A DNA stretch of 64,000 bases from Escherichia coli (GCF_009931435.1 NZ_CP043414.1); one strand, 5' to 3'. Positions 51,188 to 60,075 are shown, numbered from the stretch's first letter. Notes: generated from the sequence alone by a model not told the origin. Translations and numbers: made by a program.

Positions 51188-51381
51188 TTATCGTTATGAT
51201 CTACAAAGGCCACCAGCATAACAAATCCGTGGTCGGTGGCAAAAAAAGCAGATTTCGCTTATTAAAACTGCATATTGATTGAAGTTTGAATAAACGCGCG
51301 ATTTTTTTAAAAAGTTTGTTGACCTCAGGTCATGATTTCCCTAAATTAGCGCCCGTTCCAGCAAGACAGGAACGACAATTT

Positions 51382-51469
51382 GGTGAGGTGTCCGAGTGGC
51401 TGAAGGAGCACGCCTGGAAAGTGTGTATACGGCAACGTATCGGGGGTTCGAATCCCCCCCTCACCGCCA
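51382..51469 (+). tRNA. serX: tRNA-Ser (anticodon GGA), CCA encoded
   Basis: ggtgaggtgtccgagtggctgaaggagcacgcctggaaagtgtgtatacggcaacgtatcgggggttcgaatccccccctcaccgcca; long variable arm, T-loop GGTTCGAATCC, anticodon GGA. Confidence 0.93.
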
Positions 51470-51931
51470 TCTTTAAAGAAGAGCTCGTACGAAAGTACGG
51501 GCTTTTTTTTCGTATATTGCACACACCGGGGGGATGAGAAGCCCCGACAGGGGTTCGACAACTGGCGACAGCCAGTTGGACAGACCGTGAACGCAGTGAG
51601 CGGGCTGCCCGCAGGGCGAGCGAAGCGAGTCAATCCCCCCCTCACCGCCATCTTTAAAGAAGAGCTCGTACGAAAGTACGGGCTTTTTTTTTGTATATTG
51701 CACACACCGGGGGGATGAGAAGCCCCGACAGGGGTTCGACAACTGGCGACAGCCAGTTGGACAGACCGTGAACGCAGTGAGCGGGCTGCCCGCAGGGCGA
51801 GCGAAGCGAGTCAATCCCCCCCTCACCGCCATCTTTAAAGAAGAGCTCGTACGAAGGTACGGGCTTTTTTTTCGTATATTGCACACACCGGGGGATGAAA
51901 AGCCCCGACCGGGGTTCGACAACTGGCGACA
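51470..51931 (+). repeat. tRNA-linked tandem direct repeat array: about 2.5 copies of a 181-bp unit, each ending with the 3'-terminal 19 nt of serX
   Basis: Copies at 51470-51650, 51651-51831 and a truncated copy at 51832-51931. Copies 1 and 2 differ by one C/T; copy 3 has about four substitutions or indels. The tRNA 3'-end motif aatccccccctcaccgcca recurs at 51451-51469, 51632-51650 and 51813-51831. Confidence 0.9.
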
Positions 51932-51934
51932 AAC

Positions 51935-53302
51935 TCAATCATCATCCTTGCAGTTGATAAGAATTTCTGCCTCTTTTACAACTATCTTATTACGTCCGGT
52001 TTCTTTCGCTTCATATAGTGCATTATCAGCCATTCGATAGATTTCATTCGGATTTAACGCACTTCCCTGAGTCACCACAGCGCCAATGCTAATCGTCACT
52101 TTTTGCGGTATGGCGTATTCAGGATTATCGCCTGTCAAACGCTCTACATTTGCCCTTATCCTTTCGGCTAAAACTTTCGCGCTTTCAGTATCGGTCTCCG
52201 TCAGCAAGACGCCAAACTCTTCGCCGCCAACGCGTGCTAAAAGGTCATTTGGTCGTATGCTTTTCCCAATGATGCTCACCACTGTTTTTATCACCTGATC
52301 GCCAACCGGATGCCCCCACGTATCGTTAACTTTTTTAAAGTGATCGATATCCATAATCATGACACAATAAGACGTTTTTTGGGCTGATGCTGATTGAGCC
52401 TTCAGTTCATTGAAAAAATAATTCCTGTTAAATATATTAGTTAATGGATCGCGATGGGCAATGTTCTTTGTTACTCGTAGCGCACTGAAAATATGGCACA
52501 TAAATATTACCATAACGGTTAATTTACTGACTACTTCAATAGTGCGGCTAATATACCAAGTGGACACACTATACCTGCTCATAAATAACAGAGAGATATT
52601 ATACAGCACGGCACAGAAAGCAATCACTGATACTCCATTCCAGATATCACAGCGTAAACCATTAAAGTATAGATTAACCAAAAGCAAGATTAACCACATG
52701 AAAATTATTATGGTAACATATGAGGTTTTCCAGACTACCTGACCATTTTCATTTGTTAACTCGGCAATATGTAAACTGTAGTCATCATAATGACTACTTA
52801 GCATGTGAGCAACTGCCGCCCCCCCATAAATAAAAAATAGGCTTATACACAATGTCATTTTTTTGGAAAAAAAACAGCGTTTCTTATTGTTTTCACTAAC
52901 TTTATTCACCAGCGCTAGCAATATTAACATGCACAAACTCATCTGACGAAACAAATAATAAATTGCAATATCATTTTGTACAACGCTGCTTATCAAATGC
53001 CCCTCAATAAATTGCTGAATGATAATGACAGTTTTAACAAAGTAAATCAAACAACTCAGAAACGCTAAACTAAGTATACAGTTTGAAAATTGCACACGAT
53101 CATAAATGAAATACAATTGCATGAAAATAAATGCAACGGTATCGATAAAAAATAAAGCAATCATAACCATTAGATAGGTTGATCGTGGAACAACCTCCTC
53201 AACGGTTGGCTGATTAAACCAACTATTTACCAAAACGAATGCAAGCCCAAACAATAAGCTCACCAATACAGTACTACTAATTCCCAAATAGTCTTTTTCC
53301 AT
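51935..53302 (-). CDS. dgcT: diguanylate cyclase DgcT (YcdT), MASE4 membrane domain plus GGDEF
   Basis: Track ORF trimmed to ATG at 53300-53302 (MEKDYLGISSTVLVSLLFGLAFVLVNSWF...), about 455 aa; GGDEF active-site variant RVGGEEFGVLL. Confidence 0.9.
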   Translation of the reverse strand: MEKDYLGISSTVLVSLLFGLAFVLVNSWFNQPTVEEVVPRSTYLMVMIALFFIDTVAFIFMQLYFIYDRVQFSNCILSLAFLSCLIYFVKTVIIIQQFIEGHLISSVVQNDIAIYYLFRQMSLCMLILLALVNKVSENNKKRCFFSKKMTLCISLFFIYGGAAVAHMLSSHYDDYSLHIAELTNENGQVVWKTSYVTIIIFMWLILLLVNLYFNGLRCDIWNGVSVIAFCAVLYNISLLFMSRYSVSTWYISRTIEVVSKLTVMVIFMCHIFSALRVTKNIAHRDPLTNIFNRNYFFNELKAQSASAQKTSYCVMIMDIDHFKKVNDTWGHPVGDQVIKTVVSIIGKSIRPNDLLARVGGEEFGVLLTETDTESAKVLAERIRANVERLTGDNPEYAIPQKVTISIGAVVTQGSALNPNEIYRMADNALYEAKETGRNKIVVKEAEILINCKDDD

Positions 53303-53649
53303 AAAGCTACACCAATCTGTAGGTTGTAGATCCCTTTCTGTCACTAATAGATATAAGAACTGTACTGTTGTCAATATAAAAATCCACCACAAACAATACC
53401 AATGATGATAGTTGCAGACCGCAATTATTATTACCTTAGTGCTTTATACATTCTTCGCGACAAGACAGGCTTGCAAATACATATAAATGGTTATAAGGAA
53501 ATCCTTATAAAACATTAATTCATAGATATATTAGGAATAACAATTGAATCCGTGAGTACAGTAACGCTGCATTTCATCAGGACTTTCGAAAAATCCGATA
53601 TCATGCATCGGAATTTACTGATTTAATTATTTTAATCCTAATTTATTTT

Positions 53650-53891
53650 GAAAAAGGCATTGGAATTTATGCCGTATTCCTGAAGTTCCTCATCATTGGA
53701 ATGGATTTTCGGGCGAGAAAAGGATTTTATATGGATACTCTACTCATCATTTCTTCTTCTCATCATCAACAATTCACGTCTCTCTTCCGCGTTTAATAAC
53801 GGATTATGATGTGCATAAAAAATATCTTTCGTTTCAGTTACCTGTAATTAGATACAGAGAGAGATTTTGGCAATACATGGAGTAATACAGG
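53650..53891 (+). promoter_or_regulatory. pgaA 5' leader with multiple GGA motifs (CsrA-type)
   Basis: GGA motifs recur in ...ttggaatggatt..aaaggatt..tatggata..cggattatg..catggagtaatacaggATG, including one in the Shine-Dalgarno. The pgaA leader is a known CsrA target; boundaries estimated. Confidence 0.5.
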
Positions 53892-56315
53892 ATGTATTCA
53901 AGTAGCAGAAAAAGGTGCCCGAAAACCAAATGGGCTTTGAAAATTCTTACTGCCGCATTTTTAGCAGCGAGTCCCGCGGCGAAGAGTGCTGTTAATAATG
54001 CCTATGATGCATTGATTATCGAAGCTCGCAAGGGAAATACTCAGCCAGCTTTGTTATGGTTTGCACAAAAATCAGCACTCAGTAATAACCAAATTGCTGA
54101 CTGGTTACAGATTGCCTTATGGGCCGGGCAAGATAAACAGGTTATTACCGTTTACAACCGCTACCGTCATCAGCAATTACCAGCGCGTGGTTATGCAGCT
54201 GTCGCCGTCGCTTATCGTAACCTGCAACAATGGCAAAACTCGCTTACACTGTGGCAAAAGGCACTCTCTCTGGAGTCGCAAAATAAGGATTATCAACGGG
54301 GACAAATTTTAACCCTGGCAGATGCGGGTCACTATGATTCTGCGCTGGTTAAACTTAAGCAGCTTAACTCTGGAGCACCGGACAAAGCTAATTTACTCGC
54401 AGAAGCCTATATCTATAAACTGGCGGGGCGGCATGAGGATGAATTACGGGCGATGACAGGGTCATTACCTGAAAATGCCTTAACGCAACAATATCCCACA
54501 GAATACGTGCAGGCATTACGGAATAATCAACTTGCTGCCGCGATTGACGATGCCAATTTAACGCCAGATATTCGCGCTGATATTCATGCCGAACTGGTCA
54601 GACTGTCGTTTATGCCTACGCGCAGTGAAAGTGAACGTTATGCCATTGCCGATCGCGCCCTCGCCCAATACGCTGCATTAGAAATTCTGTGGCATGATAA
54701 CCCTGACCGCACTGCCCAGTACCAGCGTATTCAGGTTGATCATCTTGGCGCGTTATTAACTCGCGATCGTTATAAAGACGTTATTTCTCACTATCAGCGT
54801 TTAAAAAAGACGGGGCAAATTATTCCGCCCTGGGCGCAATATTGGGTTGCGTCGGCTTATCTCAAAGAACATCAGCCAAAAAAAGCACAGTCAATAATGA
54901 CAGAGATCTTTTATCACAAGGAGACCATTGCCCCGGATTTATCCGATGAAGAACTTGCGGATCTCTTTTACAGCCACCTGGAGAGTGAAAATTATCCCGG
55001 CGCGCTAACTGTCACCCAACATACCATTAATACTTCGCCGCCTTTCCTTCGGTTAATGGGCACGCCTACGAGCATCCCGAATGATACCTGGTTACAGGGG
55101 CATTCGTTTCTCTCAACCGTAGCAAAATATAGTAATGATCTTCCTCAGGCTGAAATGACAGCCAGAGAGCTTGCTTATAACGCACCAGGAAATCAGGGAC
55201 TGCGCATTGATTACGCGAGTGTGTTACAAGCCCGCGGTTGGCCTCGTGCGGCAGAAAATGAATTAAAAAAAGCAGAAGTGATCGAGCCACGTAATATTAA
55301 TCTGGAGGTTGAACAAGCCTGGACAGCATTAACGTTACAAGAATGGCAGCAGGCAGCGGTCTTAACGCACGATGTTGTCGAACGTGAACCGCAAGATCCC
55401 GGCGTTGTACGTTTAAAACGTGCGGTTGATGTACATAATCTTGCAGAGCTTCGTATCGCTGGTTCAACAGGAATTGATGCCGAAGGTCCGGATAGTGGCA
55501 AACATGATGTCGACTTAACCACCATCGTTTATTCACCACCGCTGAATGATAACTGGCGCGGTTTTGCTGGATTCGGTTATGCCGATGGACAATTTAGCGA
55601 AGGAAAAGGGATTATTCGCGACTGGCTTGCGGGTGTTGAGTGGCGGTCACGTAATATCTGGCTTGAGGCGGAGTACACCGAACGCTTTTTCAATCATGAG
55701 CATAAACCCGGCGCGCGCCTGTCTGGCTGGTATGATTTTAATGATAACTGGCGTATTGGTTCGCAACTGGAACGCCTCTCTCACCGCGTTCCATTACGGG
55801 CAATGAAAAATGGTGTTACAGGCAACAGTGCACAGGCTTATGTTCGCTGGTATCAAAATGAGCGGCGTAAGTACGGTGTCTCTTGGGCTTTCACTGATTT
55901 TTCTGACAGTAATCAGCGTCATGAAGTCTCACTTGAGGGTCAGGAACGCATCTGGTCTTCACCATATTTGATTGTCGATTTCCTCCCCAATCTGTATTAC
56001 GAACAAAATACAGAACACGACACCCCATACTACAACCCTATAAAAATGTTCGATATTGTTCCGGCATTTGAGGCAAGTCATTTGTTATGGCGAAGCTATG
56101 AAAATAGCTGGGAGCAAATCTTCAGCGCAGGTGTTGGTGCCTCCTGGCAAAAACATTATGGCACGGATGTCGTCACCCAACTCGGCTACGGGCAACGCAT
56201 TAGCTGGAATGACGTGATTGATGCTGGCGCAACGCTACGCTGGGAAAAACGACCTTATGACGGTGACAGAGAACACAACTTATACGTTGAATTCGATATG
56301 ACATTCAGATTTTAA
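53892..56315 (+). CDS. pgaA: poly-beta-1,6-N-acetylglucosamine outer-membrane export porin PgaA
   Basis: 807-aa ORF MYSSSRKRCPKTKWALKILTAAFLAASPAAKSAVNNAYDALIIEARKGN... (TPR region plus C-terminal beta-barrel). Confidence 0.96.
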   Translation: MYSSSRKRCPKTKWALKILTAAFLAASPAAKSAVNNAYDALIIEARKGNTQPALLWFAQKSALSNNQIADWLQIALWAGQDKQVITVYNRYRHQQLPARGYAAVAVAYRNLQQWQNSLTLWQKALSLESQNKDYQRGQILTLADAGHYDSALVKLKQLNSGAPDKANLLAEAYIYKLAGRHEDELRAMTGSLPENALTQQYPTEYVQALRNNQLAAAIDDANLTPDIRADIHAELVRLSFMPTRSESERYAIADRALAQYAALEILWHDNPDRTAQYQRIQVDHLGALLTRDRYKDVISHYQRLKKTGQIIPPWAQYWVASAYLKEHQPKKAQSIMTEIFYHKETIAPDLSDEELADLFYSHLESENYPGALTVTQHTINTSPPFLRLMGTPTSIPNDTWLQGHSFLSTVAKYSNDLPQAEMTARELAYNAPGNQGLRIDYASVLQARGWPRAAENELKKAEVIEPRNINLEVEQAWTALTLQEWQQAAVLTHDVVEREPQDPGVVRLKRAVDVHNLAELRIAGSTGIDAEGPDSGKHDVDLTTIVYSPPLNDNWRGFAGFGYADGQFSEGKGIIRDWLAGVEWRSRNIWLEAEYTERFFNHEHKPGARLSGWYDFNDNWRIGSQLERLSHRVPLRAMKNGVTGNSAQAYVRWYQNERRKYGVSWAFTDFSDSNQRHEVSLEGQERIWSSPYLIVDFLPNLYYEQNTEHDTPYYNPIKMFDIVPAFEASHLLWRSYENSWEQIFSAGVGASWQKHYGTDVVTQLGYGQRISWNDVIDAGATLRWEKRPYDGDREHNLYVEFDMTFRF

Positions 56316-56323
56316 GGATAAAT

Positions 56324-58342
56324 ATGTTACGTAATGGAAATAAATATCTCCTGATGCTGGTGAGTATAATTATGCTCACTGCGTGCATTAGCCAGTCAAG
56401 AACATCATTTATACCGCCACAGGATCGCGAATCTTTACTCGCCGAGCAACCGTGGCCGCATAATGGTTTTGTGGCGATTTCATGGCATAACGTTGAAGAC
56501 GAAGCTGCCGACCAGCGTTTTATGTCAGTGCGGACATCAGCACTGCGTGAACAATTTGCCTGGCTGCGCGAGAACGGTTATCAACCGGTCAGTATTGCTC
56601 AAATTCGTGAAGCACATCGAGGAGGAAAACCGCTACCGGAAAAAGCAGTAGTGCTGACTTTTGATGACGGCTACCAGAGTTTTTATACCCGCGTCTTCCC
56701 AATTCTTCAGGCCTTCCAGTGGCCTGCTGTATGGGCCCCCGTCGGCAGTTGGGTCGATACGCCAGCGGATGAACAAGTAAAATTTGGCGATGAGATGGTC
56801 GATCGAGAATATTTTGCCACGTGGCAACAAGTGCGAGAAGTTGCGCGTTCCCGGCTCGTTGAGGTCGCTTCTCATACATGGAATTCTCACTACGGTATTC
56901 AGGCTAATGCCACCGGCAGCTTATTGCCTGTATATGTAAATCGTGCATATTTTACTGACCACGCACGGTATGAAACCGCAGCAGAATACCGGGAAAGAAT
57001 GCGTCTGGATGCTGTAAAAATGACGGAATACCTGCGTACAAAGGCTAAGGTAAATCCACACGTTTTTGTTTGGCCTTATGGTGAAGCGAATGGCATAGCG
57101 ATAGAGGAATTAAAAAAACTCGGTTATGACATGTTCTTCACCCTTGAATCAGGTTTGGCAAATGCGTCACAATTGGATTCCATTCCGCGAGTATTAATCG
57201 CCAATAATCCCTCATTAAAAGAGTTTGCCCAGCAAATTATTACCGTACAGGAAAAATCATCACAACGGGTAATGCATATCGATCTTGATTACGTTTATGA
57301 CGAAAACCGCCAGCAAATGGATCGCAATATTGATGTGCTAATTCAGCGGGTGAAAGATATGCAAATATCAACCGTGTATTTGCAGGCATTTGCTGATCCC
57401 GATGGTGATGGGCTGGTCAAAGAGGTCTGGTTTCCAAATCGTTTGCTACCAATGAAAGCAGATATTTTTAGTCGGGTTGCCTGGCAATTACGTACCCGCT
57501 CAGGTGTAAACATCTATGCGTGGATGCCGGTATTAAGCTGGGATTTAGATCCCACATTAACGCGAGTAAAATATTTACCAACAGGGGAGAAAAAAGCACA
57601 AATTCATCCTGAACAATATCGCCGTCTATCTCCTTTTGATGACAGGGTCAGAGCACAAGTTGGCATGTTATATGAAGATCTTGCCGGACATGCTGCTTTT
57701 GATGGCATATTGTTCCACGATGATGCTTTGCTTTCAGATTATGAAGATGCCAGTGCACCGGCTATCACGGCTTATCAGCAAGCAGGCTTTAGCGGGAGTC
57801 TGAGCGAAATTCGACAAAACCCGGAGCAATTTAAACAGTGGACCCGCTTTAAAAGTCGTGCGTTAACTGACTTCACTTTAGAACTTAGTGCGCGCGTAAA
57901 AGCCATTCGCGGTCCACATGTTAAAACTGCACGAAATATTTTTGCACTTCCGGTAATACAACCTGAAAGTGAAGCCTGGTTTGCACAGAATTATGCTGAT
58001 TTCCTAAAAAGCTATGACTGGACCGCTATTATGGCTATGCCTTATATGGAAGGTGTCGCAGAAAAATCGGCTGACCAATGGTTAATACAATTGACCAATC
58101 AAATTAAAAACATCCCTCAGGCTAAAGACAAATCTATTTTAGAATTACAGGCACAAAACTGGCAGAAAAATGGTCAGCATCAGGCTATTTCTTCGCAACA
58201 ACTCGCTCACTGGATGAGCCTATTACAACTGAATGGAATGAAAAACTATGGTTATTATCCCGACAATTTTCTGCATAACCAACCTGAAATAGACGTTATT
58301 CGTCCTGAGTTTTCAACAGCCTGGTATCCGAAAAATGATTAA
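56324..58342 (+). CDS. pgaB: poly-beta-1,6-N-acetylglucosamine N-deacetylase lipoprotein PgaB
   Basis: 672-aa [51 protein letters not shown]... Confidence 0.96.
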
Positions 58343-59660
58343 TCGCATCGTATCGTTTTTTATATTATGTCTGGTGTTATGCATACCCCTATGCGTAGCG
58401 TACTTTCACTCTGGTGAACTGATGATGAGGTTCGTTTTCTTCTGGCCGTTTTTTATGTCCATTATGTGGATTGTTGGCGGCGTCTATTTCTGGGTATATC
58501 GTGAACGCCACTGGCCGTGGGGAGAAAACGCACCAGCTCCCCAGTTGAAAGATAATCCGTCTATCTCCATTATCATTCCCTGTTTTAATGAGGAGAAAAA
58601 CGTTGAGGAAACCATACACGCCGCTTTAGCACAGCGTTATGAGAACATTGAAGTTATTGCCGTAAATGACGGTTCAACAGACAAAACCCGTGCCATCCTG
58701 GATCGCATGGCTGCACAAATTCCCCACCTGCGGGTCATTCATCTGGCGCAAAACCAGGGGAAAGCCATTGCGCTTAAAACCGGAGCTGCCGCGGCGAAAA
58801 GTGAATATCTGGTGTGCATTGATGGCGATGCGTTATTAGACCGCGATGCGGCGGCATATATTGTGGAACCGATGTTGTACAACCCGCGTGTGGGTGCCGT
58901 AACCGGTAATCCTCGTATTCGAACACGTTCTACCCTGGTGGGTAAAATTCAGGTTGGCGAGTATTCCTCAATTATTGGTTTGATCAAGCGAACCCAGCGT
59001 ATCTATGGAAACGTATTTACCGTTTCTGGTGTTATTGCCGCATTTCGTCGCAGCGCCCTGGCAGAAGTGGGTTACTGGAGTGACGATATGATCACCGAAG
59101 ATATTGATATTAGCTGGAAGCTGCAGTTGAATCAGTGGACGATTTTTTACGAGCCACGGGCGCTGTGCTGGATATTAATGCCTGAAACGTTAAAAGGGCT
59201 GTGGAAACAGCGCCTGCGCTGGGCTCAGGGCGGTGCAGAAGTATTCCTCAAAAATATGACAAGGCTATGGCGCAAAGAAAACTTTCGAATGTGGCCACTG
59301 TTTTTTGAATACTGTCTGACGACAATATGGGCCTTTACCTGCCTGGTCGGTTTCATTATTTACGCAGTCCAACTTGCAGGTGTACCGTTAAATATTGAAT
59401 TGACACATATCGCTGCGACACATACTGCCGGAATATTATTGTGTACGTTATGTTTACTGCAATTTATTGTCAGCCTGATGATCGAGAATCGCTATGAGCA
59501 TAATCTGACTTCATCGCTTTTCTGGATTATTTGGTTCCCGGTTATTTTCTGGATGCTGAGCCTGGCAACGACATTGGTATCATTTACACGAGTCATGTTG
59601 ATGCCTAAAAAGCAACGCGCCCGTTGGGTAAGTCCCGATCGAGGGATTCTGAGAGGTTAA
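58335..59660 (+). CDS. pgaC: poly-beta-1,6-N-acetylglucosamine synthase PgaC (GT2)
   Basis: 441-aa [52 protein letters not shown]...; its start overlaps the pgaB stop. Confidence 0.96.
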
Positions 59661-59661
59661 T

Positions 59662-60075
59662 ATGAACAATTTAATTATTACGACCCGACAATCGCCAGTA
59701 CGTTTAATGGTTGATTATGTTGCCACAACCATCTTATGGACATTATTTGCTTTGTTCATATTCTTATTCACCATGGATCTGCTGACGGGTTATTACTGGC
59801 AAAGTGAGGCCAGAAGCCGACTTCAGTTCTATTTTTTGCTGGCAGTGGCGAATGCCGTCGTGTTAATTGTCTGGGCGCTGTACAATAAGCTGCGTTTTCA
59901 AAAACAGCAGCATCATGCAGCCTACCAATATACGCCGCAAGAATATGCAGAGAGCTTAGCAATACCTGATGAGCTCTATCAGCAACTACAAAAAAGCCAC
60001 AGGATGAGCGTACACTTCACCAGCCAGGGGCAAATAAAAATGGTTGTTTCAGAAAAAGCGCTAGTCCGGGCATAA
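59662..60075 (+). CDS. pgaD: PGA synthase accessory membrane protein PgaD
   Basis: 137-aa [50 protein letters not shown]... Confidence 0.95.

Follow-up and report, generated by a model that had tools for sequence, protein, structure and literature searches.

The 589 bp that separate the divergently transcribed genes dgcT and pgaA in this Escherichia coli strain are very probably orthologous to the dgcT-pgaA control region of E. coli K-12, and the pgaA-proximal 237 nt would constitute the pgaABCD mRNA leader, which is expected to act as it does in K-12. The element is already known and ordinary: its sequence is a rare variant, and all of the known control motifs that could be placed on it are preserved. 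The strain carries a complete pgaABCD operon together with a predicted CsrA/Rho/NhaR control region of the textbook type, and PGA-dependent biofilm formation is therefore expected to be regulated as in K-12, which gives the finding little importance beyond annotation. In what follows, the window is the whole stretch of 64,000 nucleotides that was analyzed, and positions are counted from its first letter.

Gene context of the dgcT-pgaA spacer

The genes at the locus and the spacer between them are as follows.

51935-53302, minus strand: dgcT (ycdT) coding sequence, diguanylate cyclase of 455 amino acids (from the ORF list and the RefSeq annotation of near-identical strains)
53303-53891: dgcT-pgaA divergent intergenic region, 589 bp, 33.3% GC
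53892-60075, plus strand: pgaA, pgaB, pgaC, and pgaD, all full length (807, 672, 441, and 137 amino acids)
53892-53894, plus strand: pgaA start codon

Both neighbors are identified by their counterparts in annotated genomes. The closest complete genome, that of strain 2020CK-00188 (NZ_ABACVG020000001.1), is 100% identical over the spacer and 99.7% identical over dgcT and its downstream flank, and its RefSeq annotation places there a coding sequence for a GGDEF protein (the dgcT orthologue) that ends at the spacer, followed by pgaA. In K-12 C600, the homologous pair is annotated as dgcT and pgaA in the same layout, with a spacer of 586 bp. The first-pass annotation of this DNA had put the two starts about 590 bp apart, which agrees with our measurement, but its start coordinate for the region, 53393, falls 90 bp into the spacer, directly after a mechanical TTG-started ORF that ends at 53392. 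The interval 53393-53891 still takes in the entire pgaA promoter and leader. The spacer had also been called AT-rich, and at 33.3% GC compared with 49.7% for the whole 64-kb window it clearly is. RefSeq records carry no annotation within the dgcT-pgaA spacer, and because an Rfam scan of 53200-54000 (E of at most 1) returned only two chance-level matches, no curated RNA family can be assigned to the leader.

The pgaA leader retains the K-12 layout

The locus and gene order are those of the K-12 pgaABCD promoter and leader described previously (Wang et al. 2005; Goller et al. 2006; Figueroa-Bossi et al. 2014, PMC4052769). The K-12 pgaA 5' UTR is 234 nt long and contains six CsrA sites (PMC4052769, summarizing Wang et al. 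2005). Two 5'-proximal sites lie in +61 to +81, the left arm of a hairpin that spans +61 to +107, while the right arm (+82 to +107) is the 5' half of the Rho utilization (rut) site, and the C>G bubble with phased YC dimers that marks this site extends from +50 to +130 (PMC4052769). [quoted passage not shown] Transferred to the window, this layout gives the following features.

53655-53891, plus strand: predicted pgaA 5' UTR, 237 nt, with +1 placed by homology to the K-12 234-nt leader
53656-53673, plus strand: 5'-terminal hairpin GGCAU-UGGAAUUU-AUGCC, with a loop GGA at 53662-53664 (P(unpaired) of 0.98 in the predicted fold)
53698-53705, plus strand: tandem GGA pair UUGGAAUGGAU, at +44 and +49
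53704-53784, plus strand: C-rich, G-poor bubble, the putative Rho utilization site (+50 to +130, interval from PMC4052769)
53715-53761, plus strand: anti-terminator hairpin, +61 to +107 (PMC4052769)
53715-53735, plus strand: left arm of the hairpin, with mapped CsrA sites 1 (GGA at 53722) and 2 (GGA at 53733), identical to K-12
53736-53761, plus strand: right arm of the hairpin, 5' half of the rut site, with C82U (53736) and G88A (53742) in its apical part
53731-53796, plus strand: 21-codon upstream open reading frame (uORF) MDTLLIISSSHHQQFTSLFRV, ending in a stop codon
53801-53803, plus strand: GGA at +147 (ACGGAUU), the sole GGA between the hairpin and the Shine-Dalgarno sequence
53879-53882, plus strand: GGAG Shine-Dalgarno sequence, mapped CsrA site 5 (PMC4052769, PMC7652899)
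53890-53892, plus strand: GGA over the AUG, mapped CsrA site 6 (PMC4052769, PMC7652899)

With +1 placed at 53655, the published hairpin limits are reproduced, G61 pairing with C107, and the numbering is good to within 1 nt, because the AUG of the uORF falls at +77 compared with 78 in PMC4052769.

A match to the CsrA-repressed K-12 leader had been proposed from the sequence, to be checked by alignment and at risk from substitutions that disrupt GGA motifs. The alignment bears the proposal out: the two leaders are 96.2% identical (237 versus 234 nt), all eight GGA motifs of the window leader have K-12 counterparts, and 8/8 K-12 GGA motifs are retained. Six substitutions and one 3-nt insertion separate the alleles, and no GGA is destroyed.

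53664 (+10): G>A
53686 (+32): substitution
53736 (+82): C>U
53742 (+88): G>A
53810 (+156): G>U
53815-53817: AUA insertion, inside a length-variable A tract
53831 (+174): substitution

The AUA insertion explains the difference between 237 and 234 nt. The only change at a GGA is the one at +10, where GGGA becomes GGAA at 53664 (UUGGGAUU to UUGGAAUU) and the GGA is thereby shifted by 1 nt; this G>A change is unique to the window allele among the alleles compared, and the GGA of the 5'-terminal hairpin is apparently not among the six mapped CsrA sites. The window agrees with K-12 at every position from -55 to +9, in the hairpin left arm, which holds CsrA sites 1 and 2, in the bottom stem, and over the final 60 nt. 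The GGA at +147 and the ACAGAGAGAGA run (53854-53864) are likewise identical to K-12, the nearest changes being G156U at 53810 and the AUA insertion at 53815-53817. From its place in the leader, the +147 GGA is probably mapped CsrA site 3.

The leader GGA motifs begin at 53662, 53698, 53703, 53722, 53733, 53801, 53879, and 53890. At least six had been noticed in the last approximately 240 nt before pgaA, and we count eight in the last 237 nt. One of them, however, had been misplaced: the motif read as the Shine-Dalgarno sequence, caGGAtg, has its GGA at 53890-53892, overlapping the A of the start codon, and the true Shine-Dalgarno sequence is GGAG (53879-53882), located 9 nt before the ATG. 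The further claim that posttranscriptional control of PGA synthesis is intact in this strain holds for the cis elements only, as csrA, csrB/C, nhaR, rho, and nusG lie outside the window.

Expected mechanism and stability of the anti-terminator hairpin

By homology to K-12, where the mechanism is known, we infer that transcription would proceed from an NhaR-activated promoter just upstream of 53655 and that CsrA dimers would bind GGA-containing sites in the leader. CsrA at the GGAG Shine-Dalgarno sequence (53879) and at the AUG GGA (53890) would compete with the 30S subunit and so repress translation, while CsrA at the left-arm sites (GGA at 53722 and 53733) would melt the weak +61 to +107 hairpin, exposing the C-rich Rho entry site (approximately 53704-53784) and leading to premature Rho-dependent termination in the distal leader. 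The E. coli glgC leader, a classic target of CsrA translational repression in which a CsrA dimer bridges a hairpin-loop GGA and the Shine-Dalgarno GGA and blocks the 30S subunit (PMC7652899), works on the same principle but has no sequence homology to the pgaA leader, has fewer sites, and lacks a module for CsrA-induced Rho termination.

The predicted stability of the hairpin is practically equal in the two strains, with a minimum free energy (MFE) of -6.0 kcal/mol in the window and -6.4 kcal/mol in K-12 and ensemble energies of -7.4 and -7.8, respectively. Only this comparison between alleles is meaningful, because the published Mfold value of 9.9 kcal/mol, given without a sign (PMC4052769), rests on other folding parameters. 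The window and K-12 share the bottom stem GAGAA.AAGGA/UUCUU.CUUCUC, and the apical pairing alone differs. The composition that would favor Rho entry is also kept: the 78 nt after site 2 contain 26.9% C, 10.3% G, and 15 YC dimers in the window, compared with 28.2%, 12.8%, and 15 in K-12.

Could the same element have been retuned, so that C82U, G88A, G10A, G156U, and the AUA insertion shift the CsrA/Rho set point and PGA expression measurably differs from that of K-12? The allele is rare, the stability of this hairpin is described as deliberately borderline, and changes of 2 to 3 nt swing expression both ways (PMC4052769). The window has two natural substitutions within the hairpin that fall in its apical part and in the rut site (+82 and +88) and change the predicted apical MFE structure, a further one in the 5' hairpin loop (+10), and two differences close to the +147 GGA (+156 and the insertion). 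Against this, the two predicted energies lie only 0.4 kcal/mol apart, nothing has changed in the bottom stem or in the two CsrA sites of the hairpin, where binding nucleates, the number of YC dimers is unaltered, and other strains, EC-10 and C1, share the C82U/G88A haplotype. We therefore regard quantitative retuning as possible but not indicated, and as a rather unlikely account of the differences. The rare leader and dgcT haplotype is nevertheless a natural variant that could be used to test the borderline-stability idea for the anti-terminator hairpin.

A reading of C82U and G88A as a compensatory pair (C-G to U-A in the apical helix of the K-12 MFE structure) was considered and rejected. 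That helix has only 2 bp, the double mutant gains just 0.3 to 0.4 kcal/mol over the single mutants on the K-12 MFE structure, the window's own MFE structure has a different apical pairing, and the two changes are linked in one haplotype and both synonymous in the uORF.

Conservation of the leader among natural alleles

Divergence from K-12 climbs steeply across the locus from pgaB towards dgcT, as the nucleotide identities show.

pgaB, 5' part: 98.9%
pgaA: 97.8%
pgaA leader: 96.2%
spacer upstream of +1: 91.5%
dgcT: 88.3%

The spacer upstream of about -56 has diverged from K-12 by 8% and dgcT by 12%. Synonymous divergence in pgaA is 0.066 and uniform along the gene. With 6/234 substitutions (2.6%), the leader has changed less than the synonymous sites of pgaA (6.6%; Poisson p = 0.006) and less than the upstream spacer (8%), and it is thus conserved above its neighboring synonymous sites. 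The window allele is a rare one: only 5/4166 complete genomes have a leader at least 99% identical to it, and 148 have a whole spacer at least 99% identical.

For a wider comparison, 86 sequences from complete genomes, one GTDB representative, and 70 metagenome contigs were collapsed into 27 distinct promoter-to-ATG alleles. Run against metagenomes, the promoter block matched 70 loci, which all carry E. coli-type alleles, and a scan of genome contigs with PgaA residues 1-300 returned two loci only. Across this set, the GGA motifs at the Shine-Dalgarno sequence and AUG are kept in 27/27 alleles and those at site 1, +44, and +49 in 26/27, the exception being an allele with a 133-nt deletion, while the GGA motifs at site 2 and +147 are kept in 19/27.

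The last figure reflects a divergent E. coli pga class of the same architecture (for example, strains SCPM-O-B-8794, NT1N25, and PT62; alleles L011 and L013-L016 belong to it), and identity to allele L011 reaches 90% or more in approximately 106 complete genomes. This class shares with the window the promoter block, the 5' hairpin with its loop GGA, site 1, the Shine-Dalgarno and AUG sites, and a 21-codon uORF, but it has lost the GGA of site 2 (AUGGAC to AUGAAC) and that at +147 (CGGAU to CGGGU), and it has a weaker predicted hairpin (-4.0 kcal/mol). The window allele belongs to the K-12-like class and, unlike the divergent class, keeps all eight GGA motifs. Natural alleles thus point to the indispensable leader motifs: the GGAs of the Shine-Dalgarno sequence, the AUG, and, apart from the deletion allele, site 1 do not vary, while those at site 2 and +147 are lost in one E. 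coli allele class.

Several further observations were made on these alleles. In the divergent class, the PgaA N terminus is 88% identical and the leader approximately 80% identical, some of its genomes have two matching places per chromosome, and seven spacer matches lie on plasmids; a second or mobile pga locus is possible. In E. coli DETEC-P61 (L010, NZ_CP116152.1, 520-710), the pgaA leader is interrupted near +124 by an IS1 element, which cuts off the promoter, CsrA sites 1 and 2, the hairpin, and the greater part of the rut site from the Shine-Dalgarno-proximal leader, a natural case of a truly disrupted leader. [quoted passage not shown] A 382-bp contig of the Tannerella forsythia ATCC 43037 assembly (L012, NZ_JUET01000049.1) carries the K-12 pgaA promoter, leader, and first 15 codons and is almost certainly E. 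coli contamination of that assembly.

An upstream open reading frame over the rut site

CsrA site 1 (AAGGA) coincides with the Shine-Dalgarno position of the 21-codon uORF, 7 nt upstream of its AUG, and site 2 overlaps that AUG. Sites 1 and 2 might accordingly be thought to act mainly as the ribosome-binding site of a translated uORF that runs over the rut site, with CsrA controlling Rho access by blocking uORF translation, instead of or besides melting the hairpin. If this were true, CsrA would gate Rho access partly by shutting off uORF translation, and cells with little CsrA would produce a small peptide, MDTLLIISSSHHQQFTSLFRV. The arrangement of sites 1 and 2 mirrors that at pgaA itself, and the Shine-Dalgarno spacing is ideal. 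The frame is open and exactly 21 codons long in 25/27 distinct alleles, including a class that differs at 13/66 nt, and its segment is free of indels in those 25 alleles while its flanks have indels. Changes within it comprise 7 synonymous versus 8 nonsynonymous ones over 15 and 48 sites, respectively (binomial p = 0.045), and both substitutions in the window hairpin (C82U and G88A) are synonymous third positions of the uORF.

These statistics are marginal, however, and are confounded by constraints on the hairpin and rut site and by haplotype linkage. There are six amino acid replacements between the two allele classes, and the frame is shifted in one allele (L031). Figueroa-Bossi et al. mutated the uORF AUG without effect on pgaA expression and judged it nonregulatory (PMC4052769). 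An exact look-up of the uORF peptides in a protein collection gave no match, and the literature searched offered nothing relevant on a uORF or small protein of pgaA. A main role of sites 1 and 2 as a ribosome-binding site is thus improbable in our view, and control of Rho access through uORF translation has an equally small chance of being correct; the direct action of CsrA on the hairpin, as known from K-12, is the reading that we follow here.

Enrichment of GGA motifs

The spacer together with the ATG contains 12 plus-strand GGA motifs, 8 of them in the last 237 nt. This leader count exceeds the 2.4 expected from mononucleotide shuffles (p = 0.0006) and the 4.7 expected from dinucleotide-preserving shuffles (p = 0.024), and approximately 1% of 240-nt windows within the 64 kb reach eight. 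The upstream 352 nt of the spacer, equally AT-rich, show no GGA enrichment (4 seen versus 2.5 to 2.8 expected). The GGA richness of the leader is real and modestly above chance. That it should be a compositional accident of an AT-rich spacer, without a regulatory role in this strain, is scarcely tenable: the excess over dinucleotide-preserving shuffles is indeed modest and 2/8 GGA motifs are missing from another natural E. coli allele class, but the motifs coincide with experimentally mapped K-12 sites, the upstream part of the spacer is unenriched despite its equal AT content, conservation of the leader is 2.5 times that of the neighboring synonymous sites, and none of the 27 alleles varies at the Shine-Dalgarno and AUG motifs.

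The promoter side of pgaA

Upstream of the predicted transcription start, the sequence contains the following elements.

53586-53598, plus strand: T-N11-A box TCGAAAAATCCGA, -69 to -57, candidate NhaR site
53600-53654, plus strand: pgaA core promoter, -55 to -1, 100% identical to K-12
53644-53649, plus strand: -10-like TATTTT

Between 53600 and 53663 there are no differences from K-12. A simple sigma-70 consensus scan did not call the pgaA promoter, as would be expected of an activator-dependent promoter. The TCGAAAAATCCGA box matches the NhaR consensus TCgaAAAAatCtA proposed in PMC6307784 at 10/13 positions, is invariant in 9 aligned alleles and in the divergent allele L011, and has the same 3' end, ATCCGA, in the 13 alleles that reach it. 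NhaR is a LysR-type regulator whose T-N11-A sites would lie upstream of the -35 region, and on the strength of this match the box is a putative NhaR site. It overlaps an inverted repeat, TCCGA-N9-TCGGA, at 53594-53612. Two minus-strand "terminator-like" flags raised by a scan, one at this inverted repeat and one at the reverse complement of the 5' leader hairpin, are not read as terminators.

dgcT and its flanks

The dgcT-proximal part of the spacer would carry the promoter and 5' UTR of dgcT. This gene has itself been reported as a target of CsrA and, under the name ycdT, appears among the classical targets with one copy of the consensus (PMC6028588).

53303-53402, minus strand: dgcT 5' region
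53402-53373, minus strand: promoter-like TTGGTA-18-TATATT from a consensus scan, putative dgcT promoter, with a transcription start predicted near 53366
53329-53337 (plus-strand coordinates): AAAGGGAUC, with the single minus-strand GGA (TCC at 53331-53333), approximately 30 nt upstream of the dgcT ATG, a candidate CsrA site

The minus-strand GGGA block in this element is invariant in 9 alleles and in the divergent allele L011.

The dgcT gene is 88.3% identical to its K-12 counterpart at the nucleotide level and 90% identical at the amino acid level, with the GGEEF motif retained, and its synonymous divergence (pS) is 0.21 to 0.33 compared with 0.066 in adjacent pgaA. Only 16/4158 complete E. 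coli genomes have a dgcT allele at least 99% identical, most being at 80 to 95%; among complete genomes none has an identical dgcT, and the best match is 99.8%. RefSeq does not give the gene name dgcT to the window allele. This divergence points to allele classes of ancient origin or to introgression, and the boundary of recombination would lie inside the spacer.

The spacer itself is a mosaic in other strains. Strain C1 is K-12-like over the first approximately 100 bp beside dgcT and window-like beyond, and THO-010 resembles the window in its middle part and K-12 in its leader, a pattern that indicates recombination breakpoints within the intergenic region, as judged from these alignments.

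On the other side of dgcT, the stretch at 51188-51934, between ghrA/tRNA-Ser(GGA) (tRNA at 51382-51469) and dgcT, lacks three elements that K-12 has there: ycdU, a pseudogene fragment of an ACP S-malonyltransferase, and a copy of IS3. At its gathering threshold, Rfam identified only the tRNA in the window. Parts of the 465-bp stretch before dgcT are annotated as RtT sRNA repeats in other genomes, with 3 to 15 per genome.
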